NCBI RefSeq assembly: GCF_965216415.1 | Contig: NZ_CBDCFU010000001.1 | From: Marivita sp. | Lineage (GTDB): Bacteria; Pseudomonadota; Alphaproteobacteria; Rhodobacterales; Rhodobacteraceae | Direction: 5' to 3' (one strand) | Length of the DNA: 64,000 nt | Shown here: positions 8,508 to 41,176 of the stretch, piece by piece | Layout: each line of letters begins with the position of its first letter | Numbering within the stretch: the first letter of the stretch is position 1 | Made by a program: the position numbers and the translations under genes | The notes under the pieces: generated by a model | What the model was told of the DNA's origin: nothing | What the model saw: only the letters and a program-made list of their open reading frames with translations | The model's database searches: none

Positions 8508-8533
8508 GGAACCTTCCAAGGAAGCATTCCGTT
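8508..8533 (+). promoter_or_regulatory. Sigma-EcfG-type promoter of DUF2892 gene
   Basis: GGAAC-N17-CGTT, 36 nt before ATG. Confidence 0.7.
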
Positions 8534-8569
8534 GTTCCAGTGACTCGTTTGATAGGAGAATGGTAAAAA

Positions 8570-8767
8570 ATGTTCGATCAAAACGTGGGACGCTGGGATC
8601 AAGCCGCTCGGATCACCATTGGACTGGTGCTGCTTGGCTTCGCGTTGTTCTGTCCTTGGGCTGCCAGTTTCGGGGCGGTCGTGACATGGCCATCCGGTAT
8701 CATAGGAGCGGTGCTTCTGTTTACGGGCCTGACACGGCGATGTCCGGCGTATCGCCTTATGCGGTGA
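8570..8767 (+). CDS. DUF2892/YgaP-like small membrane protein
   Basis: 'NVGRWDQAARI...LLFTGLTRRCPAY' pattern; AGGAG RBS. Confidence 0.85.
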   Translation: MFDQNVGRWDQAARITIGLVLLGFALFCPWAASFGAVVTWPSGIIGAVLLFTGLTRRCPAYRLMR

Positions 8768-8911
8768 TGCCTACGCTTCGACGAGGGACATGCATCTATA
8801 ACGCCGGCGCATCCCGCAGAATGGTCCAAGTCGAGGGCGAGCATGACCGGATCGGCACAGCTAGCTACGAACTCCCGTGGAAATTCGAGCCGCGATAAAT
8901 GAGATTTGCTC

Positions 8912-9808
8912 TCAGCTGCGCTCAACCAATGCAGAGGCCGCCACAGAATAGTCGCTGATCTCCGCCCACGGGTCTTCCATCTGTCCGAGGCGCCGGAAGA
9001 TTGATGAGATCGTGTATCCATCCGGCGTCAGGTCCGAGGCGAAGGCTTCCTCCCATCGGATCGGTGTAGCGACAGGCGCCCCAGGGAGCGCCCGCACGCC
9101 ATAAGGCGCAATCGCGGTTTGCCCATCGGCTGTGCGAAAGGTGTCGATCAGCACCCTGTCGCCGCGCTTGTCCTTGCGCTGCTCGGTGGTGGCAACGCTC
9201 GGATGTGCCTCGGAAACCTCGGCGGCGATCCCGCGCGCGAATGGGCGCAGCGCGTCGACATGGGCCGAGCCATCCAGTGGCAGCACGATATGCAGCCCGC
9301 GCGAACCGGTTGTGGCCACGAAGCTCTGCAGATCGCGATCTTCCAGCGCCTTGCGTACCGCGCGCGCCACCTCTTGCACCTTGGTGAAATCGTCGTCCGA
9401 TGGATCGAGGTCGAAGATCATGCGGTCAGGACGGTCCGGGCTGCCAGCATGCGCCAGCGCGAGGTGAAGCTCGACGCAGCCCTGATCGGCAAGGTAGACG
9501 GCAGTGGCCGGTTCCGTCGCCAGCGCGTGGGTTACCGTGCCGCCCTTCTTGGGCAGTTCCATGCGTGTGATCCAGTCGGGGAAATGGTCCGGTACGTTCT
9601 TCTGGAAGAAGCCTCCCTGGTCGATCCCGTCGGGAAAGCGCCGCAGCGTCAGCGGTCGGTCCTGCCAGTGCCGCAGCGCGATTTCGGCTATGCGGGCAAA
9701 ATACTGGGCGAGGTCGAGCTTGGTGATGCCATCGCCGGGGAAGAGAACCTTGTCGGCGTTGGAAATCTCGACCTCGCGGCTACCGGCGCTGACGATCTCC
9801 GTGGTCAT
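8912..9808 (-). CDS. Stand-alone LigD polymerase (primase-polymerase) domain protein
   Basis: 'RRFPDGI..FFQKN', 'MIFDLDP', 'TTGSRGLH', 'APYGVRALPGAPVATP'; likely start MTTEIV, ATGA overlap with upstream gene. Confidence 0.88.
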   Translation of the reverse strand: MTTEIVSAGSREVEISNADKVLFPGDGITKLDLAQYFARIAEIALRHWQDRPLTLRRFPDGIDQGGFFQKNVPDHFPDWITRMELPKKGGTVTHALATEPATAVYLADQGCVELHLALAHAGSPDRPDRMIFDLDPSDDDFTKVQEVARAVRKALEDRDLQSFVATTGSRGLHIVLPLDGSAHVDALRPFARGIAAEVSEAHPSVATTEQRKDKRGDRVLIDTFRTADGQTAIAPYGVRALPGAPVATPIRWEEAFASDLTPDGYTISSIFRRLGQMEDPWAEISDYSVAASALVERS

Positions 9809-10551
9809 GTCCCGGCAACCTCGCGCGTGACCTTTTCCGCACGCTTGTCCCTGCGCAAATCCAGAGGCCTTGGGTGGCGCAATTTCTCGGCCATCGTCCA
9901 TTCGGTAAAGCCGATCTCGGCAACGAGGTCCGGACGGAGCCACAGCGCGTCCTCGTCCACCGCGTCGGACAACAAGGGCGACGTATCACGGCGGTCATCC
10001 AGCATGTCGCTCGACGACGTCAGGAAGGTGTCTTCTAAGCCCGTGCCGACCTTGTCGGCGTAACGCAGCGTGCCGTTCTCGCAATCGCCTGGAAGCAATG
10101 AGCTGAAGCACGGGCTATCCGTCTTCGACTCGGTGAAACCGCCGATAACAGGCTCAACCCTAATGGCGCATTTGAACTGCAGCCATTTGCGAGAGCGGCT
10201 GTGAAGGTAGTGCGCGCCCAAGTCTTTGGCGATCAGCGCTTCCCAGCCCTTGTCGCAGGCCTCCTTGCAACCGGCCCCGCCCTCTTCGGTTCGGTGCTGT
10301 TTATAGCGCAGCGGGTCTTCGAAGTGCAGCGCAGGCTGTTCGGCCAGCGCCTGGACCCGTTCGGGCCTCGTCTCGGTCATGTCGTGCCAGTTGCGGTTGG
10401 TCAGCCGTAGCCGGTCGCAATCGCGGAAGACAAGAACGCGCGCGTAGAACCAATCTGCATCGGAGAAGTGGTCGTCGGTTAGCATCGTCCGCATCGACGG
10501 GCTTTCGGGCAGACCCTTGGTCAGCGCCGCGATGTCCGCATCTCCTGTCAT
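9805..10551 (-). pseudogene. Stand-alone LigD-type ATP-dependent ligase domain, open frame but catalytically gutted
   Basis: Keeps 'KGWEALIAK', 'VIGGFT', 'WLRPDLVAEIGFTEWT'; motif I ExKxDG absent ('DWFY|ARVL'); motifs III/IIIa absent ('EQPA|LHFEDP'). Confidence 0.75.
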
Positions 10552-11147
10552 TCACCGTCTTCCTTCACATCGTCGAGATCACGGCCGGACTGAACCGACA
10601 GCGGCTCGGTTGACACAGGGTTGCGTCGGGCGTCCGCATCGTCGTCATCCATCTTGACCAAGAGCCACTTATCCTTGTCGTCGTCGATCCGTTGAAGTGC
10701 GTATCCGCCTCGGATCTTTTCGCCATGCAGCTGCACGAGGACGTGACCCTCATCGAGCGCGTCGCGCATTGGGCGTAGGCCGTCCTCTTCCTTGGTGATA
10801 TTGTTGTATATGCCACGATCCCATATCAGGACGGTACCGCCACCGTATTCACCCTCGGGGATTACGCCCTCAAACCCTGCATAGTCCAGCGGGTGGTCCT
10901 CGGTGGCGATGGCCAGCCGCTTGTCCCGCGGATCGATCGACGGTCCCTTGGGCACGGCCCAACTCTTCAGCACGCCGTCCACTTCAAGGCGAAAATCATA
11001 ATGCAGGCTGCTGGCGTCGTGCTTCTGGATCACAAAGCAGGGCGCTTCGGTGCCTGATGTCGCATCTCCCTGAGGCTCACCGCTTCGCGAGAAGTTGCGT
11101 TTCGACCGGTAGTCTTCAAGTCTATCGGATTTATCTTCCTCTCCCAT
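10548..11147 (-). CDS. Stand-alone LigD 3'-phosphoesterase (PE) module
   Basis: 'FVIQKHDASSLHYDFRLEVDGVLKSWAVPKGPS', 'EDHPLDY', 'GEYGGGTVLIWDRG'. Confidence 0.92.
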   Translation of the reverse strand: MGEEDKSDRLEDYRSKRNFSRSGEPQGDATSGTEAPCFVIQKHDASSLHYDFRLEVDGVLKSWAVPKGPSIDPRDKRLAIATEDHPLDYAGFEGVIPEGEYGGGTVLIWDRGIYNNITKEEDGLRPMRDALDEGHVLVQLHGEKIRGGYALQRIDDDKDKWLLVKMDDDDADARRNPVSTEPLSVQSGRDLDDVKEDGE

Positions 11148-11368: not shown

Positions 11369-12589
11369 TCACCCCATTGCGACTTGCCCGATCAGGGCTG
11401 CGACGCAAACAGCAACGCCGACGACTGGCACGGCTGGCCAGATATCAGGTACGTCCTCTGGCTGCGATCGTTTTTTCATGACGATCAGCGAGGCATTGAC
11501 GCCGGCGAAGACGAGCAGGATCGCGTAACTCGTGATGGTGGCCAGCTGCTTGAGCGGCACGAACAGCGCCAGGACCAGGATGATCGCGCCAATGATCAGT
11601 GTTGCCAGAACAGGGGTCTTCGTTCGGGCGTTCACCTTACCGAGGATTTGTGGCGCGCCGCGCTTATCGCGGCCGATATCGTAGAGAAGCCGCGCTGACG
11701 CGATCAGCTGTGTCAACGCGCTGTTCGCGATAACTGCGAGACTGGCGATGGCGACTGGCATCACCTGCCACCCCTCTCGTCCGACCGCGCGCACCAACGG
11801 CGCCTCAGCATCAACCAGTTCTTCGAGATCGCCCGCACCCACAAGCGCCATGGAGATCGCTAAGTAGAACACAAAGACGATGGCCAGCGACAAGAGCATC
11901 GCCTGCGGCATCACCCGCTTCACATCGCGGACTTCCTCAGCCGTCTGCGCCATGTCCCCAAAGCCGATGAAGGAATAGATCGCCAGAAAGGCCGCGCCGA
12001 ACAGAGCGGGCGCCATGGCACCGTCAAAATCGGTTATGGAATTCGCGATCTCGCTCGGAGACGCCAGTAGTCCGTCACGCAGCACCCAGAGGACGAAGAG
12101 TAGCGTTCCCATCCCGATCAACGTCGTCGCGGTCATCAGCCAGGCGCTTTCTTTCATGCCGACCGCCGAAACTGCGATGATCGCGCCCAGAAATGCTATC
12201 GTCGCCACCCATGGCGTGACATCAATGAAACTCGACATGTACGCCACAAAGCCCGTGGTGATCGTCGCTGCAGAAACGACATTAGCTGTCATCAGGGCCC
12301 AGCCCGTCCAAGACCCGAGCCATCGTCTGCCGAATGCGCGTTCCACATAATCAATCGGCCCCCCGGCCGTTGGAAAACGAGCGGCCATTTCCGAGTAGCT
12401 GAGCGCCGTCGTGATAGCGACAACCGCAGCCATGAGATAAGCCAGCGGTGAAAGACCTCCAGCCTCTCCGAGGACTTCGCCGATAACAACGAAGATCCCG
12501 GCGCCTAGGATGGTCCCCGTGCCATAAAAGATCAAAGGTATGAGCCCGACCTCTCGCGCCAGATCATCTCTCTTGTCTTGCTGTCCCAT
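11369..12589 (-). CDS. APC-family amino acid permease
   Basis: 'GTGTILGAGIF', 'YSEMAARFPTAGG', 'AEEVRD' motifs; many TM segments. Confidence 0.88.
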   Translation of the reverse strand: MGQQDKRDDLAREVGLIPLIFYGTGTILGAGIFVVIGEVLGEAGGLSPLAYLMAAVVAITTALSYSEMAARFPTAGGPIDYVERAFGRRWLGSWTGWALMTANVVSAATITTGFVAYMSSFIDVTPWVATIAFLGAIIAVSAVGMKESAWLMTATTLIGMGTLLFVLWVLRDGLLASPSEIANSITDFDGAMAPALFGAAFLAIYSFIGFGDMAQTAEEVRDVKRVMPQAMLLSLAIVFVFYLAISMALVGAGDLEELVDAEAPLVRAVGREGWQVMPVAIASLAVIANSALTQLIASARLLYDIGRDKRGAPQILGKVNARTKTPVLATLIIGAIILVLALFVPLKQLATITSYAILLVFAGVNASLIVMKKRSQPEDVPDIWPAVPVVGVAVCVAALIGQVAMG

Positions 12590-13214
12590 GCGTCTTGATC
12601 TCTGTATCCGGTTGCCTTTGACCTCTGTGAGGCCCGGTTAGTGGAAGTCTGCTGAAAAAACCATTCGCAGGTTCTTTCCCTTTATCGATGCCAGATCGTA
12701 GCCTGTCGGTGGTCATCTCGGGCATATTTGACGCCGTGGAGCACAGTGCAGCCGCACTGAGGGACCCCATTGCAGTAAATCTAACCAACCCTCTTGCTCC
12801 TCCCGCCCCTGGGAGCCTGAGATTAGAATCGAACGATGTGGGTCGCAGTATGAATGACACAATGCGGACCGCGAAGGACCGCGCTGCGGCTTTGAACTGT
12901 GATACCGGCAGCTTGGTATTGCCTGACAATCCGCCGCTGCGGCTAACCTCTGTGTGCGCAAAGCTCTGCTGCTGGAGTCCGGCCATGACAACGGCATCGT
13001 CCTGCTGCGGTTCCACTCCGGAACGGATACCGCGTCATGGCGGCATGTGGACTGTATGCCTTGGGGGCAGGTGCGGCAATCACCGTCGCTTGTCGAGCCG
13101 ACGTCGCCGGACGACACGATGCGCCACTGAAATTCGGCGTCTTTATCGCGCTTTAGGGCTGCGAAGTTGTAGTTGGTGCTACAAGAAATGTCTAAAAAAC
13201 CTCGCGCGCTAAGC

Positions 13215-14161
13215 GGCATGGGTTAAAGTTGTGAGCATGCCAGACGGATTCTCTGATAAGCAATCAACGCACTTTTTCGTGCTCCTGCCATTCGATGGAG
13301 AAGAAACAAACGCGGCATGAGGAGTTTCTCGTGGAGATGGATCCGGTTGTGCCGTTGCCACGGATTATGGTTTTGGTGCGATCCGCATTACCGGAAGGTC
13401 TAATCAAAGGGTGGACGACCACCGAAGCTCTTGGAAATGATGCTGAGCATGTATTCCCTCCAAAACTGGTATTCACTCAGCGACCCAATGTTCGAGGAGA
13501 TGCTGTACGACAGCGAAGCTCGTCGCCATTTCATGGGCATCACACTGGGTAATGATCGCATCCCTGACAAAGCAGCGATCTTGTACTGTCGCCAACTGCT
13601 GGTCCCTTTAGTTGAGCGAAAAGCTGTTTGTGGAGAGGACACTCACCTCACCGATCAAGGTATCACGCTGCGCTTGGGTACACTGATGAATACGACTATC
13701 GTTGATGCTGCGTGCGCGACCGTGAACAAGGCAAACGCGCTCGATCCCGAGATGTCGTCGACAAACAAGGCCAACAACTGGTATCTCGCCGTGAAAGCAC
13801 ATGTTGGCGTGGATGCTCTAAGCGAGATCGTATACAACTTAGAAACAACGACGACCAAGACGTAAGACAGTCAGGTTTGGGGTGACCCTCCACACGGTAC
13901 AGAAGCATCAGTCCGCGCCGACAAGGGTCATGTCAGCGTCCTAAGTATGGTGCCTGCAAGTTTTGGGGTGTGATGCGCAACGCGTCAAAGGACAGTGCGC
14001 TGAATCTTGGATGAAGACATCAATCGGATCATCGCGATTGTGGCGGCGCGGGTCGAGCATCCCTTCCGGGTGATCAAGCGCCAGTTCGGATGCATTGAAC
14101 CGAACTTGGCGCAAACTTAGAGCGCGCTGACATACATCACGATCACTTGAATCAGGCTTCA
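13215..14161 (+). mobile_element. Decayed IS5-family element (frameshifted transposase)
   Basis: 'KKQTRHEEFLVEM', 'LQNWYSLSDP..EEMLYD', 'KAHVGVD', 'RVEHPFRVIKRQFG' in different frames; boundaries approximate. Confidence 0.85.
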
Positions 14162-14468: not shown

Positions 14469-14493
14469 AACGAAAGCAAAGATGGACAGTTCC
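14469..14493 (-). promoter_or_regulatory. Sigma-EcfG-type promoter of dodecin
   Basis: GGAAC-N16-CGTT on minus strand. Confidence 0.7.
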
Positions 14494-15351: not shown

Positions 15352-16017
15352 TCAGCCATCCTCCTCGGACTCGGGCCAAAACATGGCGTCCATTTCGTCC
15401 TGTGCTTCCGGCGCGACGGCGACGATCAGCACATCTTTGGCTTTGAGTTTCGTGTCACCCGTGGCCAGCCGATTTTCCTCGCCGCGCGTCAGCGCGATGA
15501 CCCGCGTGGCTTTGGGCAGGTCAAGATCATTGACCGTCATTCCCTCATGGTCTTCGCTCATCGGGTAGCCCAGTACATCAAACCCCTGATGCGAGCGCAG
15601 ATCCAGCGATGCATCATGCCGCGTTTCCAGCGTGTGCACGATGGACCGCGCTACAGTAGCATGCGGCGTGATCAGATTCTCCAGCCCCAGCGCATCGCAG
15701 ACCGCCAACAATTCGCGCCGAACGATCTGCGGCACGACACGCTCGAACCCCACAGACTGGCCCACCAGCGCGGCAAGGATGTTCACATCATCCACATTGG
15801 TCAGCGCCACCAGCGCATCAGCCCCGTCGCCATAGGCGTTGCGCAGTACCGAGGGCAGAGAGCCATCGCCCTCCAGCAGCCCAGCATCCAGCTCTTCAGA
15901 CAGTGCTGAAAGACGATCGCCATCATGATCGATCAGCACCACCTCGTGCCCCGCCTCGATCAGCCGTTCGGCAGTGGCCACCCCAAAGCGCGAAGCGCCC
16001 ACAATTACGATGCGCAT
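15352..16017 (-). CDS. trkA: TrkA/KtrA-type K+ uptake regulatory subunit (single RCK_N + RCK_C)
   Basis: 'MRIVIVGASRFG', 'GDGS', 'DALVALT..DDVNI'; follows trkH. Confidence 0.88.
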   Translation of the reverse strand: MRIVIVGASRFGVATAERLIEAGHEVVLIDHDGDRLSALSEELDAGLLEGDGSLPSVLRNAYGDGADALVALTNVDDVNILAALVGQSVGFERVVPQIVRRELLAVCDALGLENLITPHATVARSIVHTLETRHDASLDLRSHQGFDVLGYPMSEDHEGMTVNDLDLPKATRVIALTRGEENRLATGDTKLKAKDVLIVAVAPEAQDEMDAMFWPESEEDG

Positions 16018-16026
16018 GTCTTTCTC

Positions 16027-17478
16027 CTATCTGTGAAAAGGGGCCCATGTGCCGGGTGACAGAACAGCAATGAGCGTCACAAATTCCAACCGCCCAAGTA
16101 ACATCGCAGCGGCTAAGACGAGTTTCAGCGGCCACGCCAGATCGGGACCGGTCGCCCCTAGGCTCAGGCCAACGGTCGAAAGCGCCGATACCGTGTCGAA
16201 CAGGGCCGACATCGGGTCGATGCCGCCTAGGCATAACAGCGCCCAGACGATCAGCATCGACGCTGCATACAGGCACAGCACTGCCCCCAGAGCCACCAGC
16301 TTTGCCGCATCGACCCGGCGGCTGTTTTCCTTGAGCGGCATGACAGCACCCGGCGGGGCCTTCATCCGCAACAGCGCCACGCCGACCATGCGGCCCAATG
16401 TGGCAACACGTTCAGCCTTGACGCCGCCGGCGGTCGATCCGCTGCCGCCGCCCACCACCATCGCAGCCAGGATTGCCGCCATGACCGGTACTATGGCACC
16501 GGGATCGCCGACGCTGAACCCCGCAGTGGTTACGCCCGAGACCATATTGATCGTCGCATCCACAGCGTCGTTAAAGCTCGCTCCGCTGGCCAAGGCCAGA
16601 ACAAAGGCAAGCACCGTGGCCAAGGCTATCCCGCCCAGCACCAGCCTCGCATTCGTTCCGGTCAGGGCCTTTTTCATCCCGTCTCGCCAGAATACGATAT
16701 AGGCCATCAGCGACACGGTCGTCGCCACGCAGACTATCATCGTTGCGACTTGCGCCATGCGCGAGTAGCTCTCCAGACTGTCTGGGCGCGGAGTAAACCC
16801 GCCGGTGGAAACGGCTGTCAACGCAATGGCAACCGCCTCCCACCACGTCGGAAACAGTGGCATGAAGCCCAGCACTGCAATCCCCGTCAGCGCGCCGTAG
16901 ACAACCAGCAGCCTACGCGCCTGAACCCTAGTCGAGGACAGGATGTCCTGATCATCAATCCCAGTGCGGCCCAGTGTGCTTGCGGTCGATCGTGCACTTA
17001 CGGGACCGAGGATCAGCGCCACTCCCGCCACAGCGATGGCAAAACCGCCCGCCCATTGCATCCAACCACGCAAAGCATGACCCGTCAAAGGCCAGTCCAT
17101 CGTGCCGGACGCCACCGTCAAACCGGTTGACGTTATGGCCGAAACGCTTTCGAAGATAGCATCGACCAGCGGCAATCCCAGCATCATATAGGCTGGCACC
17201 GCAAGTGCTGCGACGCCGACAAACAGCATCACCAGGACAGCCGCAGCCTCGATCCCGCGCAAGTCGCGCGGCGGTGTGACCCGCGTGGCGCACAAAGCCG
17301 CGATCACAACCGCCAGCAGAGGCAGGCCGAGCGCGCGCACCAGCGGCCATGCTTGTTCGGCCAGCGCCACTGCAAACGGCAGCGCCAACACCATTCCCAC
17401 CACGTGAGCCTGAGAAAGCACCGCAGCCATCACCGCGCCAGGCCGGGCCGTCCATGCCACGCTGGCTTGTCCGTTCAT
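16027..17478 (-). CDS. trkH: TrkH-family K+ uptake membrane protein
   Basis: Four filter motifs (SAITSTGL, AVSTGGF, GVTTAGF, ALSTVGL); 'GGGSGSTAGGVK', 'MLLGRLE'. Confidence 0.9.
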   Translation of the reverse strand: MNGQASVAWTARPGAVMAAVLSQAHVVGMVLALPFAVALAEQAWPLVRALGLPLLAVVIAALCATRVTPPRDLRGIEAAAVLVMLFVGVAALAVPAYMMLGLPLVDAIFESVSAITSTGLTVASGTMDWPLTGHALRGWMQWAGGFAIAVAGVALILGPVSARSTASTLGRTGIDDQDILSSTRVQARRLLVVYGALTGIAVLGFMPLFPTWWEAVAIALTAVSTGGFTPRPDSLESYSRMAQVATMIVCVATTVSLMAYIVFWRDGMKKALTGTNARLVLGGIALATVLAFVLALASGASFNDAVDATINMVSGVTTAGFSVGDPGAIVPVMAAILAAMVVGGGSGSTAGGVKAERVATLGRMVGVALLRMKAPPGAVMPLKENSRRVDAAKLVALGAVLCLYAASMLIVWALLCLGGIDPMSALFDTVSALSTVGLSLGATGPDLAWPLKLVLAAAMLLGRLEFVTLIAVLSPGTWAPFHR

Positions 17479-17509: not shown

Positions 17510-17535
17510 AACACCTTGCCCGCCCTATCTGTTCC
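17510..17535 (-). promoter_or_regulatory. Sigma-EcfG-like promoter of trkH-trkA
   Basis: GGAAC-N17-TGTT. Confidence 0.5.
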
Positions 17536-17543
17536 CGCTTTCG

Positions 17544-17568
17544 TGAACAAAACGCCGCCTTTCGCGTT
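17544..17568 (+). promoter_or_regulatory. Sigma-EcfG-like promoter of Na/Ca antiporter
   Basis: TGAAC-N16-CGTT, 8 nt before ATG. Confidence 0.5.
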
Positions 17569-20253: not shown

Positions 20254-20279
20254 AATGCATCGGCAGTGCCGCACGTTCC
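20254..20279 (-). promoter_or_regulatory. Sigma-EcfG-like promoter of degP
   Basis: GGAAC-N17-CATT. Confidence 0.55.
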
Positions 20280-20922: not shown

Positions 20923-20947
20923 GGAACCAACTCGGGTCAAAGCGGTT
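20923..20947 (+). promoter_or_regulatory. Sigma-EcfG-like promoter of disulfide oxidoreductase
   Basis: GGAAC-N16-GGTT. Confidence 0.55.
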
Positions 20948-23441: not shown

Positions 23442-23466
23442 AACGCGCCCACGCCGGAACCGTTCC
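23442..23466 (-). promoter_or_regulatory. Sigma-EcfG-type promoter of FNT gene
   Basis: GGAAC-N16-CGTT, 8 nt before ATG. Confidence 0.7.
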
Positions 23467-31487: not shown

Positions 31488-31513
31488 AACGTCATCGCTG
31501 CGACATCGGTTCC
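31488..31513 (-). promoter_or_regulatory. Sigma-EcfG-type promoter of fadE operon
   Basis: GGAAC-N17-CGTT, 20 nt before ATG with GGAGG RBS. Confidence 0.72.
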
Positions 31514-31710: not shown

Positions 31711-31735
31711 GGAACCTTGATCGACGATAATGGTT
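31711..31735 (+). promoter_or_regulatory. Sigma-EcfG-like promoter of permease
   Basis: GGAAC-N16-GGTT. Confidence 0.55.
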
Positions 31736-31766: not shown

Positions 31767-32990
31767 ATGTTCGACGGTGGATTTTTCGCAACTTGGGCCG
31801 AAGCCACGAAGACCGCCTTTGGTTTTTTCTGGAAATCGGGCTGGGCTTTTGTTCTGGGTTATGCCGTAAGCGCCATGATCCAGGCATTCGTGCCGAAAGC
31901 AAAGCTGACGCGGTTTATGGGTGGAGCCGACGCGCGTTCTGTTGCGCTCGCCACAGTGTTCGGCGCCGCATCGTCTTCTTGCTCGTTCGCCGCACTCGCG
32001 ACAGCGCGATCTCTCGTTCTGAAAGGCGCCCACTTTGCTGCGGCCGTCGCCTTCATGTTCGCATCGACCAATTTGGTAATCGAGTTAGGCATTCTGATCC
32101 TGATCTTTCTCGGATGGCAGTACCTTTTGGCTGAAATCATCGGCGGGCTCATCCTGATCCTCATCTCGAGCGTGCTGATCCGCCTGACCTATCCGCGCAA
32201 CTGGCTCGAAAGTGCTCGCGAGAAGGTGGAAGAGGAAGGCAGCGCGGAAGAAAACGATTTCGACTGGCGTGAGCGCATAGCATCGAAGGAAGGCTGGCAA
32301 ATGGTCGGGATGAACTTCGTCCACGATTGGCAGATGGTCTGGAAGGAAATCTTGATTGGTTTCACCATAGCGGGTTTCGTGGCGGCGCTTGTCCCTGCAG
32401 AGTGGTGGGCCGCCATTTTCCTGACGGGATATCAGGATGAGCTTCCCGGCTGGGTGATCGCGTTAGAGAACGCTATGGTTGGACCCTTCGTCGCTGCGGC
32501 CACTTTCATCGGGTCCATGGGGAATATCCCACTTGCGACCGTTCTGAACGCCAATGGCGTGCTGTTTGCCGGAATCATGGGATTCATCTATTCGGACTTG
32601 ATGGTTCCACCTCTCGTCGCGGTTAACGCCAAGTACTATGGTCTGCGCGTCGCGCTATATATTGCTGTAGTCATGTATGTGAGTATCGTTGCAACCGCGT
32701 TGATCCTGACCGGCAGCTTTGAATTGCTCGATCTAGTACCTGAAAGTGGCAGAGCCGTCACTGACGTCGTGCAGTTCAAGATTGATTACACATTCTGGAT
32801 GAACTTGGTCTTTCTTTTCGTTGCAGCGGTCTTGGTCTGGTTGTTCCGCGGTCACATTCGCCAGCACGGGCACATGCACCACGATATGGAAGGAGACGGT
32901 CCTCTCAAACGCGGTGCCGCTCTCGTTGCGATGGCGGTTCTTGCGATCGGTCTCGTCGCTCTTGCACTGCATGGGTGGTCCGTTTCCTGA
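31767..32990 (+). CDS. Predicted permease (DUF318/ArsP-like) with His-rich C-terminal loop
   Basis: 'ASSSCSFAA', 'FMFASTNL', 'FIGSMGNIPLA'; HIRQHGHMHHDM; GAGGAG RBS. Confidence 0.82.
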   Translation: MFDGGFFATWAEATKTAFGFFWKSGWAFVLGYAVSAMIQAFVPKAKLTRFMGGADARSVALATVFGAASSSCSFAALATARSLVLKGAHFAAAVAFMFASTNLVIELGILILIFLGWQYLLAEIIGGLILILISSVLIRLTYPRNWLESAREKVEEEGSAEENDFDWRERIASKEGWQMVGMNFVHDWQMVWKEILIGFTIAGFVAALVPAEWWAAIFLTGYQDELPGWVIALENAMVGPFVAAATFIGSMGNIPLATVLNANGVLFAGIMGFIYSDLMVPPLVAVNAKYYGLRVALYIAVVMYVSIVATALILTGSFELLDLVPESGRAVTDVVQFKIDYTFWMNLVFLFVAAVLVWLFRGHIRQHGHMHHDMEGDGPLKRGAALVAMAVLAIGLVALALHGWSVS

Positions 32991-33650: not shown

Positions 33651-33676
33651 GGAACCAACGAACAGTAGCCCACGTT
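33651..33676 (+). promoter_or_regulatory. Sigma-EcfG-type promoter with no adjacent ORF
   Basis: GGAAC-N17-CGTT about 360 nt upstream of the SLC13 start. Confidence 0.55.
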
Positions 33677-34038
33677 ACTTAACTAAGCCATCGGACGTGT
33701 AGGCAGGTTTAGGAAGATAGACAGATTGCGCAATCAGCGGAACCAAAACAACTGAAGACGGCAAAGCACTCTGCGCGACCTGAATTTTTTCGCCTGTACC
33801 ACACGGAGAGTTATGCGGACCAAGCCCGTCTGACATGATCCGTACCATGCTCCGCGGCCCGTAACGAGTACCGAAAATCGTGCGTTGCAGGAGCTTTTAA
33901 TTTGGCCCATGTCAGGAGAATGCCCAATCGTACCCCTGCAGATACGCAAAATAGCGAGACGCCTCCTGACACGCGGTGAGAAATCATCTTCTATTACGGG
34001 ATCCGAAGATCCTATCCACGAACTACAGGCATACTAAC

Positions 34039-35829
34039 ATGACGAACATTCTGCCCATGATGCATGCCTTTACAAGCGAGTATCAGGCGTTCATCGCTCT
34101 CGCGCTTATCGTTGCGCTATTCTCGGTCATGTTTTTGGAACTCTATCCGCCAGAAGTATCGGCCGCTGGCTTTGCTGCCGTTTTCGTGGCGCTTGGTTAT
34201 GTCAGCCCGGATGAATTACTGGAGGTCTTCTCCAATCCTGCGCCGCTCACCATAGGCGCGATGTTCGTGCTCTCTGGAGCATTGGTCAGGACCGGCGTCC
34301 TTGAGGCAATTTCAAATGTCGCGATTTCCCAAGTGCAAACCCGGCCATACATCGCGCTTGGCATGATCTTGGGGGTCACGATGGTGACCTCGAGTTTCGT
34401 AAACAATACCGCTGTGGTTCTTGTGCTCATTCCGGTGGTTATCCGATTGGCCGCTGCGCTGGACATCGGGCCGACTCGTCTACTTATGCCACTGTCCTAT
34501 GTGGCTATACTCGGTGGGACCTGCACGTTGATCGGTACCTCCACAAACCTTCTGGTGGATGGCGTAGCCCGCGATCAGGGGCTGGAAGCATTCGGCATAT
34601 TCGAGATGACGCCCGTAGGCATTCTTGTGGCCATTGCCGGTGCGCTGACGCTTGCGCTGTTGGGTCGTTTTTTGCTGCCAGACCGGGATGGCAGCGATCC
34701 TGACCAGATGCTTGGAGAGACGCATTTCTTGTCTGAGGCGGTTATTGGGGAAAAGTATGCAGGGCAGCGCCTATGCGAAATCAATCCCTTTAACCGATCG
34801 GGCGTGCAGATCATCGCGTTGCACCAAGATGGCAAAGTCTGGAGAGATTCTCCGGGGGATCGAATTGTCGCAGAAGGTGACAAGGTGATACTGCGCGCGC
34901 CCACCTCGGAACTCCTGACAATGGACGAAGACGCGGATCTCATGTTGGGTTTGAGCGGTACCGAGATGCGAGACGACGACCTAGTGACAGTCGAGGTTGT
35001 AGTTTCTCCCCACAAAGCAACCACGAGACGCAAGTTGCGCGGCATGGCGCTTGGGCAGCGATTTGGAGTGCGGGTGCTGGGAGGCTCTCGTCCCGGTCGG
35101 GAGCTGAACTCGGCGCTGGGAGAAATGCAATTGCGTCCTGCCGACAAGCTTCTGCTGGAAGGTCCACCTGAAGCATACCAAATGCTGGAGGACGAGGCCG
35201 AACTGGTCTCGGTCAGCCGACCGACTGGCCGCGCCTTCCGTCGCAGGCGCGCCCCGCTAGCGCTAATCGCCATGGTCGCGGTAATCGGCTTGGCAGCCTT
35301 CGGCTTCTTCGATATCGCGACGCTGGCCATTCTCGCGGTCAGCGCCAGCCTTGTCTTCCGCTGTATAGACGCCGACGAAGCCTGGAACTCGGTCGACGGG
35401 TCGATTCTTGTGCTGATTTTCGCCATGCTCGTCATCGGCCGTGGTATGCAGCAGACTGGTACGGTCGAATTTCTTGTCGACCAACTCTCTTGGATGATTT
35501 CCGGGTTCTCGCCCTTTTTTATGCTGTTTTCTGTCTACCTTTTGGCCTCGGTGCTTACAGAAACAGTCACCAATAACGCAGTGGCGGTTGTTTTCACGCC
35601 GATTGCCATCGGTTTAGCCGACACCACAGGTCTCGATCCGCGCGCACTGACGTTGGCCGTGATGTTCGGCGGTTCGGCCAGCTTTGCCACGCCGATCGGC
35701 TACCAGACCAATACACTGATCTATGGCACTGCCAATTACCGTTTCGCAGATTTCCTTAAGATCGGTCTGGTGATGAATTTGGTGACGGCTGTTGCGGCTT
35801 GCGTTGGGATCATGTGGATGTTTTCCTGA
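34039..35829 (+). CDS. SLC13/DASS-family permease with central TrkA-C domains
   Basis: 'SSFVNNTAVV', 'ILGGTCTLIGTSTNL', 'SFATPIGYQTN'; start could also be 33976 or slightly downstream. Confidence 0.88.
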   Translation: MTNILPMMHAFTSEYQAFIALALIVALFSVMFLELYPPEVSAAGFAAVFVALGYVSPDELLEVFSNPAPLTIGAMFVLSGALVRTGVLEAISNVAISQVQTRPYIALGMILGVTMVTSSFVNNTAVVLVLIPVVIRLAAALDIGPTRLLMPLSYVAILGGTCTLIGTSTNLLVDGVARDQGLEAFGIFEMTPVGILVAIAGALTLALLGRFLLPDRDGSDPDQMLGETHFLSEAVIGEKYAGQRLCEINPFNRSGVQIIALHQDGKVWRDSPGDRIVAEGDKVILRAPTSELLTMDEDADLMLGLSGTEMRDDDLVTVEVVVSPHKATTRRKLRGMALGQRFGVRVLGGSRPGRELNSALGEMQLRPADKLLLEGPPEAYQMLEDEAELVSVSRPTGRAFRRRRAPLALIAMVAVIGLAAFGFFDIATLAILAVSASLVFRCIDADEAWNSVDGSILVLIFAMLVIGRGMQQTGTVEFLVDQLSWMISGFSPFFMLFSVYLLASVLTETVTNNAVAVVFTPIAIGLADTTGLDPRALTLAVMFGGSASFATPIGYQTNTLIYGTANYRFADFLKIGLVMNLVTAVAACVGIMWMFS

Positions 35830-36439: not shown

Positions 36440-36670
36440 TCAACCGGCGCCAACGGGTGACGCCGCCCAGGGCCAAGCAATGGCCAGCAAGCCAAGCCAG
36501 AAGAAGAAAAGAAGCAATACGGCGAGCCCGGCTGCCGTGGCGCTGGTCGCGTAGCGATAGCCGCCGCCGTAGCGGTAAGGCCAGCGCTCGTAGGTGTAGG
36601 GCCAAGTTGGCCAAGCAAAAACCGTCACTAGCAGGAGTAACATGAAAAACCAGAAGAAGAAGTCAGCCAT
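36440..36670 (-). CDS. Small aromatic-rich two-TM membrane protein
   Basis: Strong AAGGAGG RBS; two hydrophobic helices flanking WPTWPYTYERWPYRYGGGYRY. Confidence 0.7.
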   Translation of the reverse strand: MADFFFWFFMLLLLVTVFAWPTWPYTYERWPYRYGGGYRYATSATAAGLAVLLLFFFWLGLLAIAWPWAASPVGAG

Positions 36671-36723
36671 TTTTTGTATCCTCCTTGTATTCAGTAATCT
36701 TCGCGGCGTGAACGGATCATCAG

Positions 36724-37263
36724 TCAGGACCCACCCGTCTCTTTCACGTCGCCGAACGCTTTCTCAAGTTCAGCCATATCGCTGTAGCGGCGATCTGGAA
36801 GGCAGGAGATGAGATCCATTTCATGATCGTTGGCCTCGCCACGCGCGTGGGCTGTCAACTCCTCGACGGAGGCCGGAAATTCGATGCCGGAAAAGAGGCT
36901 CGCGAAGCGCGCCGCCGAAAGTGACTTGGAGTGCATGGCAGCATTGCCACCACGGATGCTGGGTTTGTCAGTCGGTTTGTCTTCGCGGGCGCGCAGACCC
37001 CCAAAGGCCCGCGCAACGTCAGCGGCATCCCGATATTCACGGTCAGGTAATGCTTCCAATATATCGGCGATCTCGTCCGCACCGTTGTCTCGCGCATGCT
37101 CAACCAGCGCATCCCGAGTCGCTGGATAAGCTATTCCAGACAAGGACCCTTCGAGATCGGCCGCCGAGGGCGCACGCTCTGGATGTGACGTCTGCATGTG
37201 ACGGCGATATTCCGAGAGCGTGCCAAATTCGGCGCCGCAGATATCACAACGGTGCTGGGCCAT
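36724..37263 (-). CDS. C2H2 zinc finger fused to two DUF2795 domains
   Basis: C-x2-C-x3-F-x5-Y-x2-H-x4-H at N-terminus; two 'YPA/FPA...L...A...LPDR.Y' repeats. Confidence 0.8.
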   Translation of the reverse strand: MAQHRCDICGAEFGTLSEYRRHMQTSHPERAPSAADLEGSLSGIAYPATRDALVEHARDNGADEIADILEALPDREYRDAADVARAFGGLRAREDKPTDKPSIRGGNAAMHSKSLSAARFASLFSGIEFPASVEELTAHARGEANDHEMDLISCLPDRRYSDMAELEKAFGDVKETGGS

Positions 37264-38258
37264 CAGCGCACCTCTCCGACAGCTTTGGTCACATCGGCCA
37301 TCGTTTCGAACTGGCGGTCCGGCATGGTCTTGATCAGGTCAACAACCTCTTCTGGAGCGTCATTATCGCGCGCCTGCCGAGCAAGCGTGGCACGGTCGGA
37401 TGGAAACGATACTCCCTTGAGCGCGGAAGTCACTCCAGCTGCAGAGTCGGTTTTTGCTGCAGCTGGTCCGCCGAGCCGACCACCTTTGCTGCGGTCGCCC
37501 TCGGATTCCACCGGCTCGGCCTCGCCGGTCGCCGAGGCGAAGTTGCCATTTTCCAACGGATCGTCGGGCCAGTTATCCCGATCCAGTCCGAAAGTCTCGA
37601 ATGGGTCGACCTTGCCGTTGGACCCTATTTCGATGGGGTCGGTCTCCGGCTCGGCACCAATCAAGACCAGCTGTGCATTCTCGTAGTCCAGAAGGCGCGA
37701 GTCCGATATGTTGATCCACCGCTCATCCGCAAATTTCTCGAACAGTTCTTTGGGATAATCCGGCTCTGCGTCTGGGAATCCCGGCACATTGATCGAAGGA
37801 TTTCTCACCGAAATGACATAGCGTGCTTCATTCTGAATATTCAGAGCCTTTTGCGCCGCACCAATGTTTTTTGGAGCGTTTAGTCGATAGGCGAGTTGTG
37901 TGGAGCTGTCGCGCGAAGCGATCACGTAACGACCAAAAGCAACGGGGATAGCCTGCGGCGTCTGACGCTCGCCGCGCGTCTTGGTTTCATACTCAACTGG
38001 GTGCAGCGCTTTGCCAAGCTCTGTCGGCGTGCCAACCTCGGACAGTAGAAGCCAATGCCGCTCTGACGGGTCCGATTCTCCTGGTATGATTTCCGGCATT
38101 AGCTTGCGGCCCACAATGAACAGCCGAGCCTTTTTCCGTTCGTCAGGAACCAGCGCTAGATACATCCTTTGCAGATCGTCCACTTCCGAAGGCGTATCAA
38201 TGTCGATCTTTGCCCTATAGAAAAAGTGAATTTCGCCAGTTTCGATAATCTTAGTCAT
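37263..38258 (-). CDS. Conserved hypothetical protein with C-terminal DUF2795 domain
   Basis: N-term 'ETGEIHFFYRAK...LQRMY'; C-term 'LKGVSFPSDRATL...MPDRQFETMADV'; GGAGG RBS; TGATG overlap. Confidence 0.75.
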   Translation of the reverse strand: MTKIIETGEIHFFYRAKIDIDTPSEVDDLQRMYLALVPDERKKARLFIVGRKLMPEIIPGESDPSERHWLLLSEVGTPTELGKALHPVEYETKTRGERQTPQAIPVAFGRYVIASRDSSTQLAYRLNAPKNIGAAQKALNIQNEARYVISVRNPSINVPGFPDAEPDYPKELFEKFADERWINISDSRLLDYENAQLVLIGAEPETDPIEIGSNGKVDPFETFGLDRDNWPDDPLENGNFASATGEAEPVESEGDRSKGGRLGGPAAAKTDSAAGVTSALKGVSFPSDRATLARQARDNDAPEEVVDLIKTMPDRQFETMADVTKAVGEVR

Positions 38259-38446: not shown

Positions 38447-38472
38447 AACATCGCGGTTCGCATTAAGGTTCC
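38447..38472 (-). promoter_or_regulatory. Sigma-EcfG-like promoter of DUF2795 operon
   Basis: GGAAC-N17-TGTT, about 190 nt upstream of start. Confidence 0.45.
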
Positions 38473-38590: not shown

Positions 38591-38616
38591 GGAACCATAC
38601 CGAATAGTAGCACGTT
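38591..38616 (+). promoter_or_regulatory. Sigma-EcfG-type promoter of PRC-barrel gene
   Basis: GGAAC-N17-CGTT. Confidence 0.72.
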
Positions 38617-38649
38617 TCCATCTAAACCCGTTTATAAAAGGAGTTTGAT

Positions 38650-39393
38650 ATGAGACCGTTCAACATCGCCAAGACCGCAACTAGCGCATTCGCACTCGTT
38701 CTGGCAGTTCCAGCCGCAGCGCAGGACAATGAAGAAGTCGAGGTACTAGCTAACTGGAGTTACACTTCGCTCTATTCAGACGGTTGGAGCGTCGAAAACG
38801 TGTTTGCCATGACCGAAGCCGTTGGTGCGAATGGAAACGAAATTGGCGACGTCGAGAATGTCATCTTTTCCAATGATGGCCAGGTGCTCGGTATCATCGC
38901 CGAGGTCGGTGGCTTTTGGGACATACTGGACACGCATGTGTTTGTTCCTTGGGACGAGGTTACTCGCGAAAGAGGAATTGAGCAGATGCGAATTCCGGTG
39001 ACAGAAGAGACAGTCGATGACTACGACGTATTCGGCGGTTACTCACTTGACGAGCAGACCATCAACAGTGCCGATACCAATTCCACGCAGCAGGTCGATG
39101 ACGATCTGGCCGCTGGATCAAACATCTTCAAGGCGACTGATTTGATTGGGGACTACGCTTATCTCTCTGACGGTGCGCGGTATGGCTACATTGCCGACTT
39201 GATCGTCCAAGACGGGGAAATCTCTTCGATTGTGACCGACGCTGCCGCCTACGGTCGCAGCGGCTACTATGCTTATCCTTATGCCTACCGTGGCGATATG
39301 AACAACGGCTACAGACTTCCCTACGATCCAGTGGAAATCGATACGCTTGAGACCTTTGATTACGAACGGCTTCAGTCTCGCGGCAATCCTTGA
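38650..39393 (+). CDS. Secreted protein with two PRC-barrel domains
   Basis: Signal peptide; 'GNEIGDVENVIF...VGGFW...VPW' and 'GYIADLIV'; AAGGAG RBS. Confidence 0.78.
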   Translation: MRPFNIAKTATSAFALVLAVPAAAQDNEEVEVLANWSYTSLYSDGWSVENVFAMTEAVGANGNEIGDVENVIFSNDGQVLGIIAEVGGFWDILDTHVFVPWDEVTRERGIEQMRIPVTEETVDDYDVFGGYSLDEQTINSADTNSTQQVDDDLAAGSNIFKATDLIGDYAYLSDGARYGYIADLIVQDGEISSIVTDAAAYGRSGYYAYPYAYRGDMNNGYRLPYDPVEIDTLETFDYERLQSRGNP

Positions 39394-39413
39394 TGTGATG
39401 GCGGTTCGATAGA

Positions 39414-39440
39414 CCGACAGGCCTCATTGAGGCCTGTTGG
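39414..39440 (+). terminator. Hairpin after PRC-barrel gene
   Basis: ccgacaggcctca-t-tgaggcctgttgg near-perfect inverted repeat. Confidence 0.55.
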
Positions 39441-39888
39441 GTCAGCAATTTTCAAGCCGCCGAACTTTCTAGTTTGAACATTATAGTGTCGAGAGTTGGA
39501 CGTTCGCCGGTGCGAGCAGTTTTTTGAGCAGCATCCTGCTCAACTGCCAATGTGGGCAGTTTACCTGCACGGCGGGCTTGAAATCCCAAGCTGCAATTCG
39601 TCTGTGTTGAGGTCATGAAGGTAGAGGTTGCCACCATATGGTGAGCCGAGGTCCGTAGGTACGGCGCATATGGGCTCGGCAGTGACCACCAAGAACGTCT
39701 GCAAGCGAGAGCGTTCAGAGGCGCCTCAAAGATTGCGGCCTGTCATTTCGTAAGCGTAGCAACACTTCGTTTAAACGGTTTAGGGGGTATGCCTCGGAGG
39801 TTCATCCGATTGCACTCGGTCGCGGCGGAGTGGATCACGTGCTCCCCGAGGTTCGCCTCCTTGGCTTGCTCTACAAATAACATACTAA

Positions 39889-40037
39889 CAGGCTGCTGAA
39901 AAAGGTTTGGCGGGCGCACTTCTCGTCTTGCTCGTCAGTCCCCGACACGATCCATTTTCGTCAGCTCGACGAGCGGGTCCAAAAAATGACGCACTTTCGG
40001 GTCGAAAAGCCTCTGCCCGGAATTTTTCAGCAGCCTG
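39889..40037. mobile_element. 149-bp MITE with 15-bp perfect TIRs and CTAA target duplication
   Basis: CAGGCTGCTGAAAAA...TTTTTCAGCAGCCTG flanked by CTAA at 39885-39888 and 40038-40041; no ORF. Confidence 0.85.
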
Positions 40038-40381
40038 CTAAGACGTTATTCTGTCTGATTTACGGTATCCTGCCCGATCTCAGAAGTGCTAATGTGAGGC
40101 AAGCAACGAGCTGCAGAACATTTCCGGCACTAAATGGGCATCGGCGCTAGAGCTCCTCAAATTTCTCCCCCGTTACTCGCAAGAATTTTGGAAAATAGAG
40201 GAGTTCTTCAGTGAATACTCGATCGATCACACTGGAGCCAAGTAAGCAGAATTCAACCTAAAACGGTCCTGTGCCTTGTTCGGGTTACGGATTTTCCAGC
40301 ATTGACGCAGTTCATCCAAAAACAGCACACACCAAATTCTTCTATAGGCGCTGATCTCTGACAAGATTCGTCCAGAATTAT

Positions 40382-41143
40382 TTACGAGTTGTCCTTGCGA
40401 TCCTTACTTTGCTCTTTCGATTTTTCTTCCGCGTGCTCGCGCTTCGCTTGGTCATGTGCGGCCTCGTCTGCCTTCCTTCGATCTCGCAACTCTTTAAGCC
40501 GGCTATCTTTGCCGTAGACAATCAACCTGTCACCTGCACCAGGCTCGTCCTTAGTGGCCGGGGCGCCGAGGAAATTCCCTTCCTTTCTTTCTATCCCAAG
40601 AACCTTCACCCCCTCGTCTTCAAGATCCAGTGCCTCAATCGAACGCCCGGAAAGCCAGCTGTCTTTCTCGACTTCAATAACGGCTATTTGCCAGTCCTTC
40701 TGAAGACGTAATAGTCCAGCGTAATCCCGCAATTCCAATGTCGTGAAACGTTGAAGACCGCGCCGGATAATCGGCGTTGCCCACCTGCTAAGGCTGTCAG
40801 ACCGCGCCAATAAGATGATCCCTGCACATCCTATAAGTAGCCCAATGAGCTTCTGCAAAGCGTTCTCTTCCGGCGTTACGAAGGTCAAGACGGCTGTCGC
40901 GATAGTCGATACCGCGCCTACCGAGCCCGCACGTATCAACAACATTATGACGCGTCGCCTTGCCGTTTCTACCAGCACGCTCTCCGCCTCGGAGGTCGTG
41001 TATCCGGCACCAGAAAATGCTGAAAGTGCTTGAAAACGCGCAATTTCTTCGGATAGCCCCGTCATGACCAACGCAATTGTACCCAACCTTACTACAAAGA
41101 GAGACAATGCAATAATGACGAGAAATGAAGCCAGCGCGGTCAT
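40382..41143 (-). CDS. Membrane protein with C-terminal TrkA-C (RCK_C) domain
   Basis: 'ARFQALSAFSGAGYTTSEAE...RRRVI' and 'GVKVLGIERK...GDRLIVYG'. Confidence 0.82.
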   Translation of the reverse strand: MTALASFLVIIALSLFVVRLGTIALVMTGLSEEIARFQALSAFSGAGYTTSEAESVLVETARRRVIMLLIRAGSVGAVSTIATAVLTFVTPEENALQKLIGLLIGCAGIILLARSDSLSRWATPIIRRGLQRFTTLELRDYAGLLRLQKDWQIAVIEVEKDSWLSGRSIEALDLEDEGVKVLGIERKEGNFLGAPATKDEPGAGDRLIVYGKDSRLKELRDRRKADEAAHDQAKREHAEEKSKEQSKDRKDNS

Positions 41144-41151
41144 GCGAGTAA

Positions 41152-41176
41152 AACGTAAAGGTTGCAGTTTCGTTCC
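41152..41176 (-). promoter_or_regulatory. Sigma-EcfG-type promoter of TrkA-C membrane gene
   Basis: GGAAC-N16-CGTT, 8 nt before ATG. Confidence 0.72.

Follow-up and report, generated by a model that had tools for sequence, protein, structure and literature searches.

Why does a region that holds no regulator, kinase or sigma gene carry as many candidate promoters of the general stress response as the regulatory locus of that response itself? This question is raised by a 64,000-nucleotide (nt) stretch of DNA from Marivita sp. (the whole of which is here called the window), corresponding to positions 126079–190078 of C1, the 389,286-bp contig of a two-contig genome whose other contig, C2, measures 4.09 Mb. 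Judging from protein matches, the organism belongs to the Roseobacter group of the Rhodobacterales. Within the window, segment 7115–41176 (the island) is rich in the motif GGAAC-N16/17-CGTT and its close variants, the promoter type of sigma-EcfG, an extracytoplasmic function (ECF) sigma factor. With a probability of about 75%, the island is read as a dense cluster of the general stress response regulon, namely a mosaic of individually wired modules on a chromid-like replicon, and not as a discrete element moving as a unit. Its motifs are very probably real sigma-EcfG promoters, which would be read in trans by the chromosomal PhyR–NepR–EcfG system.

The exact motif occurs eight times in the window, against 1.13 expected, and none of 100 dinucleotide shuffles reaches eight; all of these sites fall in 8508–41176. 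When the first base of the −10 box is left free (GGAAC-N16/17-nGTT, hereafter nGTT sites), 14 sites are found against 3.30 expected, a number likewise reached by 0 of 100 shuffles, and all of them lie in 8204–41176, so that the flanking modules, where an earlier note on this DNA had noticed no motif, are indeed free of both exact and nGTT sites. Seven of the exact sites had been listed in that note and each stands at its position and strand, while the eighth, at 12990–13014(−), is new. The six one-mismatch variants it listed also exist, but they are not equivalent: 17510(−), 20923(+), 31711(+) and 38447(−) belong to the enriched nGTT subclass, whereas 17544(+), with a TGAAC box, and 20254(−), with a CATT box, are weaker. 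Sites with at most one mismatch are, as a class, at chance level (22 against 15.7 expected, and 20 against 14.7), and the enriched part of the one-mismatch sites is only that in which the first −10 base varies.

Over the whole genome, 90 exact sites are present, with two hot spots, the island region and C2 1.155–1.188 Mb. Outside these, exact sites occur at about 0.55 per 33 kb, close to the chance figure of about 0.5 that had been estimated before. The density of nGTT sites is 4.1 per 10 kb in the island and 0.49 in the remaining genome, and the two densest windows of ~34 kb are the island and the phyR locus, each with 14 sites (those of the phyR locus in ~33 kb). Moreover, 13 of the 14 island sites are non-coding, which amounts to 14% of the 91 intergenic nGTT sites of the genome in 0.8% of its length. 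The earlier note had held that the motif should be denser here than in other intergenic DNA, and this is borne out: with approximate non-coding denominators, the density in non-coding DNA is 15.9 per 10 kb in the island and 1.12 elsewhere, a 14-fold difference (Poisson P ~2e-11). A position weight matrix extended from 22 chromosomal sites contained little information past the nine fixed bases and did not discriminate the island sites.

Such clustering could in principle result from chance, base composition, long intergenic regions or a repeated element, and two observations point that way, namely the larger non-coding share of the island (24%, compared with ~14% as the genome average) and the chance-level frequency of the generic one-mismatch class. 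Nevertheless, the shuffles do not reproduce the observed counts and the enrichment persists in non-coding DNA alone. In addition, the spacers of the sites all differ and no repeat family includes them, so the sites are not copies of a mobile repeat. Neither the orientation of the sites, nor their distance from start codons, nor their conservation at orthologs (see below) is explained by such an origin. Chance or a repeat element as the source of the cluster is thus effectively refuted by the shuffles, the non-coding enrichment and the conservation at orthologs.

The identity of the motif as the EcfG consensus, which the earlier note had taken as established, agrees with its published forms. 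In R. etli the motif is GGAAC-N16-CGTT, and in S. melonis GGAAC-N17-20-GTT was derived from EcfG-dependent genes, some of which have CATT variants. The corresponding regulators are complete in this genome; ecfG, phyR and nepR are absent from the window, as had been noted, and all three are located on C2. NepR is encoded at C2:1176722–1176823 (PF18557, E 7e-13) and is adjoined by PhyR (NF006623, 352 bits with a cut-off of 240, plus PF22029 and PF22233), while a gene for an ECF sigma factor lies on the other side of nepR (NF009198, 313 bits with a cut-off of 270); the sigma-70-family genes of the genome are likewise all on C2 (7/7). Two sites face each other in the phyR–nepR intergenic region: GGAAC-N16-CGTT is directed at phyR and GGAAC-N16-TGTT at nepR–ecfG. 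This arrangement corresponds to the classical autoregulated architecture and shows the motif apparently in use in this organism.

The island is therefore on another replicon than its presumed regulators. The cumulative GC skew of C2 peaks near 1.97 Mb and is back at zero by the contig end; since the skew closes on itself, C2 is taken as a complete chromosome and C1 as a separate element. An adjacent repA–repB–repC module is located on C1 at 26650–30111 (tblastn and Pfam), with a RepA whose Walker motif is deviant (KGGSSKT). The G+C content of C1 is 0.585 and that of the chromosome 0.587, with 0.690 and 0.682, respectively, at third codon positions (GC3). C1 is a repABC megaplasmid of chromid-like composition.

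Conservation of the sites at orthologous genes provides the second line of evidence. A scan anchored on the PRC-barrel protein covered 79 loci, namely 61 of Alphaproteobacteria and 18 of Gammaproteobacteria (Halomonadaceae or Marinobacter). When up to one mismatch was allowed, a site was present in the 250 nt before the PRC-barrel gene in 37 of the 61 alphaproteobacterial loci, compared with 8% in a random-window null, and in 0 of the 18 gammaproteobacterial loci; almost all of the one-mismatch cases are of the form GGAAC-N16/17-(G/T/A)GTT. The surroundings of these genes follow the same trend, with 1.75 nGTT sites per 10 kb in other alphaproteobacteria and 0.29 in the gammaproteobacterial loci. 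The homologs of Halomonas, Vreelandella, Marinobacter and Modicisalibacter (in L040–L073) show 33–42% identity and are often multicopy within a genome; none is preceded by an EcfG-type site.

The dodecin gene is preceded by GGAAC-N16-nGTT at 2–36 nt in 8/8 orthologs, and the fadE operon by a site at 20–33 nt from its ATG in all five homolog loci (L091–L095, from a metagenome-assembled genome, Oceanicola, Roseovarius, Roseivivax and Marivita), an exact nGTT site in four of them and GGACC...CGTT in the fifth. The order of the fad operon is the same in these five loci, while its neighbours differ in each. The gene of the TrkA_C membrane protein has a site at two of three homologs (GGAAC-N16-CGTT in L089 and GAAAC-N16-CGTT in L088), both with the ATG exactly 8 nt downstream, and the homologs sit among housekeeping genes; the third, from Sphingomonadales, has no site upstream. 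Furthermore, the single Roseovarius ortholog of the permease (1/1) has an exact site with the ATG 8 nt downstream, and two of three orthologs of the DUF2795 operon are preceded by an exact site. The orthologs keep their promoters even where the chromosomal context is unrelated, so the wiring is old and belongs to each gene or operon. On this comparison, dodecin and PRC-barrel genes are near-universal predicted targets, often adjacent to each other, and beta-oxidation through the fad operon appears to be a conserved general-stress target in the Roseobacter group.

Some of these families are known members of the response: PRC-barrel genes depend on EcfG or RpoE2 in S. melonis and S. meliloti, respectively, the S. 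melonis EcfG regulon includes PRC-barrel and Ku genes, and in S. meliloti RpoE2 controls ligD4 and ku. This experimental dependence of PRC-barrel and non-homologous end joining (NHEJ) genes also bears on the possibility that the sites are real promoters read by another ECF sigma factor, or that many of them are non-functional look-alikes. At least two or three ECF-type sigma genes besides ecfG are present in the genome, and GGAAC-type −35 boxes are common to several ECF groups, which lends this possibility some weight. Nevertheless, it is considered very unlikely, given that the motif flanks the phyR/nepR–ecfG locus, as expected of an autoregulated EcfG, that the full two-box motif with its spacing equals the published consensus, and that the PRC-barrel homologs of Gammaproteobacteria are devoid of sites. 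The PhyR–NepR–EcfG system is not known from outside the Alphaproteobacteria.

The placement of the sites relative to genes is equally regular. About 15 of roughly 17 real transcription units of the island have a candidate site (Table 1), in agreement with the former observation that nearly all motifs are correctly oriented just upstream of a unit. Measured from the −10 box to the start codon, 12 sites lie at 8–56 nt (including the weak 17544(+) and 20254(−)) and are thus within 60 nt, while three lie at 188–400 nt. When ATGs opening open reading frames (ORFs) of at least 100 amino acids (aa) were counted within 24 nt after nGTT sites, 8 nt was the commonest distance in the genome (6/34, P 0.003 compared with a uniform distribution) and also in independent alphaproteobacterial loci (6/32, P 0.002; L009, L012, L038, L076, L077 and L089). 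Scrambled control motifs gave a flat distribution. Moreover, the table of EcfG-dependent genes in S. melonis contains some with the site 2–10 nt from the coding sequence. This preference suggests a class of leaderless EcfG-dependent mRNAs which would start at the A of the ATG, within the 5–9 nt expected between −10 box and transcription start.

Table 1. Features of the island and its boundaries (window coordinates), and the replication module of C1; IS, insertion sequence; RBS, ribosome-binding site
Feature	Position	Strand	Remarks
Left boundary: decayed IS fragments (IS3-like C-terminal end, IS6/IS240-like DDE and N-terminal pieces)	6223–7066	−	PF13610 E 0.006, below cut-off
CDF-family cation efflux transporter	7115–8149	−	PF01545 E 3e-46, PF16916; no paralog in genome
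Perfect palindrome GGAAC-N17-GTTCC	8204–8231	both	GGAAC-N17-TGTT on both strands; 56 nt upstream of CDF gene
Exact EcfG-type promoter (candidate)	8508–8533	+	36 nt upstream of YgaP-like gene
YgaP-like (DUF2892) membrane protein, 65 aa	8570–8767	+	PF11127 E 3e-17; RBS AGGAGA
LigD in three overlapping ORFs (phosphoesterase, weak ligase remnant, primase-polymerase)	8912–11147	−	PF13298, PF04679, PF21686
Amino-acid permease	11369–12589	−	PF13520 E 9e-41
Exact site	12990–13014	−	3 nt before unsupported 140-aa ORF, 400 nt upstream of permease; possible permease promoter
Transposase fragment, DUF772, IS5/IS1182-type, inside island	13431–13865	+	PF05598 E 2e-10
Dodecin, 67 aa	14237–14440	−	PF07311 E 2e-24; RBS GAGGAG
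Exact EcfG-type promoter (candidate)	14469–14493	−	28 nt upstream of dodecin
trkH–trkA potassium uptake operon	15352–17478	−	PF02386, PF02254, PF02080
GGAAC-N17-TGTT site	17510–17535	−	31 nt upstream of trkH; TGTT variant as at own nepR–ecfG promoter
Weak candidate TGAAC-N16-CGTT	17544–17568	+	Na/Ca exchanger ATG 8 nt downstream; deviant −35 box
Na+/Ca2+ exchanger family protein	17577–18617	+	PF01699, TIGR00367
DegP/HtrA-like periplasmic serine protease, two PDZ domains	18766–20217	−	PF13365, PF13180; start MNIPTH, signal peptide
Weak candidate GGAAC-N17-CATT	20254–20279	−	36 nt upstream of protease start
GGAAC-N16-GGTT site	20923–20947	+	24 nt upstream of disulfide oxidoreductase
Pyridine nucleotide-disulfide oxidoreductase, dihydrolipoyl dehydrogenase-like	20972–22375	+	PF07992; NF004939 488 bits, cut-off 435
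Formate/nitrite transporter family channel	22579–23433	−	PF01226 E 1e-41
Exact site	23442–23466	−	Channel ATG exactly 8 nt downstream, leaderless geometry
fadE–fadA–fadB–CoA transferase beta-oxidation operon	24025–31467	−	PF09317, PF00108, PF02737/PF00378, PF13336
Exact site	31488–31513	−	20 nt upstream of fadE
GGAAC-N16-GGTT site	31711–31735	+	31 nt upstream of ArsP-family permease
ArsP_1-family permease	31767–32990	+	PF03773 E 7e-57
Exact site	33651–33676	+	~362 nt to CitMHS gene
CitMHS/SLC13-type anion transporter with TrkA_C domains	34039–35829	+	PF03600, PF02080; start from same-strain assembly gene call
DUF2795 operon: 331-aa DUF2795 protein, zinc-finger protein with two DUF2795 copies, 76-aa membrane peptide	36440–38258	−	PF11387; starts from same-strain assembly
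GGAAC-N17-TGTT site	38447–38472	−	188 nt upstream of DUF2795 operon
Exact site	38591–38616	+	33 nt upstream of PRC-barrel gene
Secreted PRC-barrel domain protein	38650–39393	+	PF05239
Membrane protein, 253 aa, with TrkA_C (RCK_C) domain	40382–41143	−	PF02080
Exact site	41152–41176	−	TrkA_C gene ATG exactly 8 nt downstream
Right boundary: frameshifted IS110-family transposase fragment	41294–41612	−	PF01548 E 5e-4, below cut-off
RepC	C1 repABC module		PF03428, PF11800
RepB	C1 repABC module		PF02195, PF07506
RepA	C1 repABC module		PF13614, PF01656

If the sites are promoters of sigma-EcfG, the question remains whether the island came as one piece. The earlier note had described a portable stress-tolerance cargo plugged into the host regulon, conceptually like the locus of heat resistance (LHR) of enterobacteria. 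Taken to its full extent, this means that the 34 kb would be one horizontally acquired, LHR-like island, which arrived as a unit and works in any alphaproteobacterium through the shared consensus. Parts of this description stand: the genes are of stress type, the replicon is of the repABC family, the promoters would be read by the EcfG of the host, and IS scars bound the region, as had been noted, and do so exactly at both ends (IS3/IS6-like on the left and IS110 on the right, both with Pfam matches below the curated cut-off), with another scar inside. GC3 is lower at 36.7–41.1 kb (0.56–0.61, one to two standard deviations below the host mean), site-dense stress clusters exist on pDSM14862_d and on the conjugative plasmid pC (see below), and a consensus kept across families implies that transferred genes are readable by the recipient.

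However, arrival as a unit is judged unlikely in view of synteny, composition and boundaries. A megablast search of 72,556 plasmids found neither a near-identical nor a syntenic copy, and the signature proteins have plasmid homologs of at most 46% identity; the only copies of the island are those of same-strain assemblies (99.97–99.99% identity). None of the 79 loci holds more than one island module. The neighbours of the PRC-barrel gene vary across the loci (dodecin in 8, Na/Ca exchanger in 4, DegP in 4, ArsP in 3, the DUF2795 pair in 3, LigD in 2 and the fad operon in 1), and the DUF2795 block adjoins the PRC-barrel gene in L002, L003 and L029. The orthologs keep their promoters in unrelated chromosomal contexts, as described above. 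Furthermore, most island genes have a host-like GC3 of 0.64–0.74, around a host mean of 0.68–0.69 (standard deviation 0.065), and most are the only copies in the genome, including the long fadE, which is widespread across Roseobacter-group genera, usually on Mb-scale contigs. The R. pomeroyi megaplasmid offers only a 75% match to matB and does not share the flanking gene order, so that it provides no empty site for comparison.

The boundaries themselves do not have the structure of a mobile element. No meaningful repeats were found at the island ends and no intact transposase or integrase gene is present, and a composite transposon was rejected because the two flanking scars come from different IS families. 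A tRNA scan of the window gave no hit. Part of the left scar (6725–7034) is repeated at 76–86% elsewhere on C1 and C2.

The comparison with the LHR, also known as the transmissible locus of stress tolerance (tLST), is instructive. Both the LHR of Enterobacteriaceae and the island are multi-gene stress blocks with a DegP-type protease, cation transport, redox genes and mobile-element remnants. However, the LHR keeps its synteny and recurs almost unchanged in many hosts, with gene families other than those of the island, which in turn has no syntenic copy, is accompanied by decayed IS scars of different families and relies on promoters dependent on the EcfG of the host. As a single plug-in cargo, the likeness is not supported: no other genome or plasmid holds the island, its genes pair differently elsewhere, and the syntenic islands sought in the 79 loci and 72,556 plasmids were not found.

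Clusters of EcfG sites similar to the island look common. Some loci of 12–20 kb reach 4–5 nGTT sites per 10 kb, such as L020 of Loktanella and L065 of Paracoccus saliphilus. In S. meliloti LMB1, nine nGTT sites are found in 36.7 kb of pC (L082, 202903–239562), seven of them well placed. The stress cluster of this conjugative 338-kb plasmid spans ~30 kb and comprises three PRC-barrel genes together with Mn-catalase/DsbA, MgtC/YetF/ion channel, LysM, DUF305 and DUF982 genes, and its seven well-placed sites, of the GGAAC-N16-nGTT type, lie upstream of cluster genes. Plasmid pDSM14862_d of Sulfitobacter indolifex has five sites, four well placed, together with TrkH, two PRC-barrel genes, a Na/Ca antiporter and an SLC13 permease. 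Both plasmids resemble the island in their PRC-barrel genes, ion transporters, IS elements and well-placed nGTT sites, but they differ from it in site density (1.4–2.5 compared with 4.1 per 10 kb) and in protein identity (at most 46%), as well as in their gene sets, with the exception of PRC-barrel, TrkH, Na/Ca exchanger and SLC13-type permease genes. Other related cases are the 153-kb chromid of D. shibae, which carries stress-induced kinase and sigma genes, and the plasmid- and chromid-borne RpoE2 targets published for S. meliloti.

With the known regulons of sigma-EcfG (ECF15), namely those of S. melonis EcfG, S. meliloti RpoE2, R. etli EcfG1 and C. crescentus SigT, the system shares the GGAAC-N16/17-(n)GTT motif, the set of regulators and the autoregulated core locus, and the island shares the PRC-barrel and NHEJ target families. 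In those regulons the sites lie mostly within 100 nt of the start and some at 2–10 nt, which is similar in the island. Unlike them, the island concentrates its share of the intergenic sites in a small part of the genome, on another replicon than the regulators, and has a complete beta-oxidation operon and numerous ion transporters in its cargo. Its extent of 34 kb, the location of the regulators on another replicon and the near-complete coverage of transcription units are what is distinctive of it. Literature searches found no description of a regulator-less EcfG cluster on a plasmid. Nor did they reveal a study of the EcfG regulon within the Roseobacter group proper; closest to it was work on PhyR and kinases in R. 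sphaeroides and Rubellimicrobium.

Taken together, these observations are consistent with the following mechanism for a mosaic of individually wired modules. Under stress, PhyR would be phosphorylated and bind NepR, thereby freeing sigma-EcfG, all three being products of chromosomal genes. RNA polymerase with EcfG would then start transcription at ~13–15 GGAAC-N16/17-nGTT promoters across the island. Most of the predicted transcripts would have leaders of 20–56 nt with ribosome-binding sites, whereas at least three are probably leaderless, with the ATG exactly 8 nt past the −10 box. The predicted products fit ion, osmotic, envelope and redox stress: the ion-transport cargo includes TrkAH, the CDF metal exporter, the Na/Ca exchanger and formate/nitrite, ArsP-type and SLC13-type transporters; the DegP-type protease, the disulfide oxidoreductase and dodecin are related to the envelope and redox state; the beta-oxidation operon serves lipid turnover; and the DUF2795, PRC-barrel and TrkA_C membrane proteins are stress proteins of unknown function. 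The promoter wiring would predate the island, each gene or operon carrying the promoter that its orthologs carry in other genera and contexts, and these self-contained promoter–gene modules were probably gathered through recombination and the activity of IS elements, which have left nothing but scars.

Several points weigh against this mosaic. Firstly, some sites are weak or badly placed, namely 17544(+) with its TGAAC box, 20254(−) with CATT, 12990(−) at 400 nt, 33651(+) with a leader of ~360 nt and 38447(−) with one of 188 nt. Secondly, in the few loci available, the homologs of ArsP, the Na/Ca exchanger, DegP and LigD mostly lack a conserved site; that of ArsP (31711(+)) is conserved in 0 of 3 homolog loci and that of the Na/Ca exchanger (17544(+)) in 0 of 4. 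Thirdly, the gene map comes from a crude codon-usage caller, with hand-checked starts near the sites, which is why the non-coding denominators are approximate. Finally, the exact bracketing by IS scars and the similar clusters on other plasmids, one of them conjugative, leave room for acquisition in larger blocks.

A broader and rather doubtful generalisation, put forward tentatively, is that alphaproteobacterial general-stress genes are self-contained promoter-plus-gene cassettes that collect into regulator-less 'stress hubs' on plasmids and chromids, of which the island, pC and pDSM14862_d would be examples. Since the specificity of sigma-EcfG is conserved across the class, any recipient could read such cassettes, and multi-stress tolerance would then be transferable between species without any regulator. 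Apart from this, a large part of the EcfG regulon of a Roseobacter-group bacterium can be predicted from the island in a clean and testable way. The island also adds a case in which members of a regulon have gathered on a secondary replicon, apart from their regulator, and it bears on how chromids gain core-like functions. Beyond this genome, what it contributes is the EcfG-type site at the fad operon, the dodecin and PRC-barrel targets, and the subset of sites with the ATG at 8 nt, which would imply leaderless stress mRNAs.

Some individual features of the island deserve mention. The palindrome at 8204–8231, which was not in the earlier list, lies between the divergent CDF and YgaP-like genes and could be a bidirectional EcfG site, as has been described for the palindromic site of nepR–ecfG/gsrP in E. 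litoralis. A 112-aa ORF at 8560 was rejected as a true gene, as it has no family match while the overlapping 65-aa YgaP-like ORF has a Pfam match. No site precedes the LigD ORFs themselves, and transcripts of the permease unit may extend into them; their ligase core is weak (PF01068 E 3e-4), the phosphoesterase and polymerase domains are intact, and no Ku gene is present in the window. As regards the permease, its Roseovarius ortholog has the site directly at the gene, and in the window an insertion or rearrangement may separate the permease from the 12990(−) promoter. Neither a family match nor a homolog in the fetched loci was found for the 140-aa ORF that follows the 12990(−) site.

Between the exact site 33651(+) and the CitMHS/SLC13 gene, ~360 nt (33677–34038) are devoid of ORFs and may represent either a small RNA induced by stress or a long leader with a regulatory role; Rfam searches of the window and of the leader at 33.6–34.05 kb gave no match. 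Another segment of ~1 kb between the PRC-barrel and TrkA_C genes (39400–40380) has a lower G+C content (~52%) and no ORF of more than 100 aa, and a 28-nt inverted repeat lies at 39876–39903 and 40023–40050, 86% complementary with a loop of 119 nt. Homologs of the TrkA_C membrane protein at 45–50% identity occur in haloarchaea (Haloarcula, Natrinema, Halomarina and others) and Rhodothermaceae, and many PRC-barrel relatives come from saline isolates, which gives the cargo a flavour of salt adaptation.

On the chromosome, an exact EcfG-type site at C2:3576042(−) lies 92 nt upstream of a gene for a 297-aa RpoH-like sigma factor (3575072–3575950), which suggests a possible EcfG-to-RpoH sigma cascade. 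The arrangement would resemble that of S. meliloti, where RpoE2 controls rpoH2.

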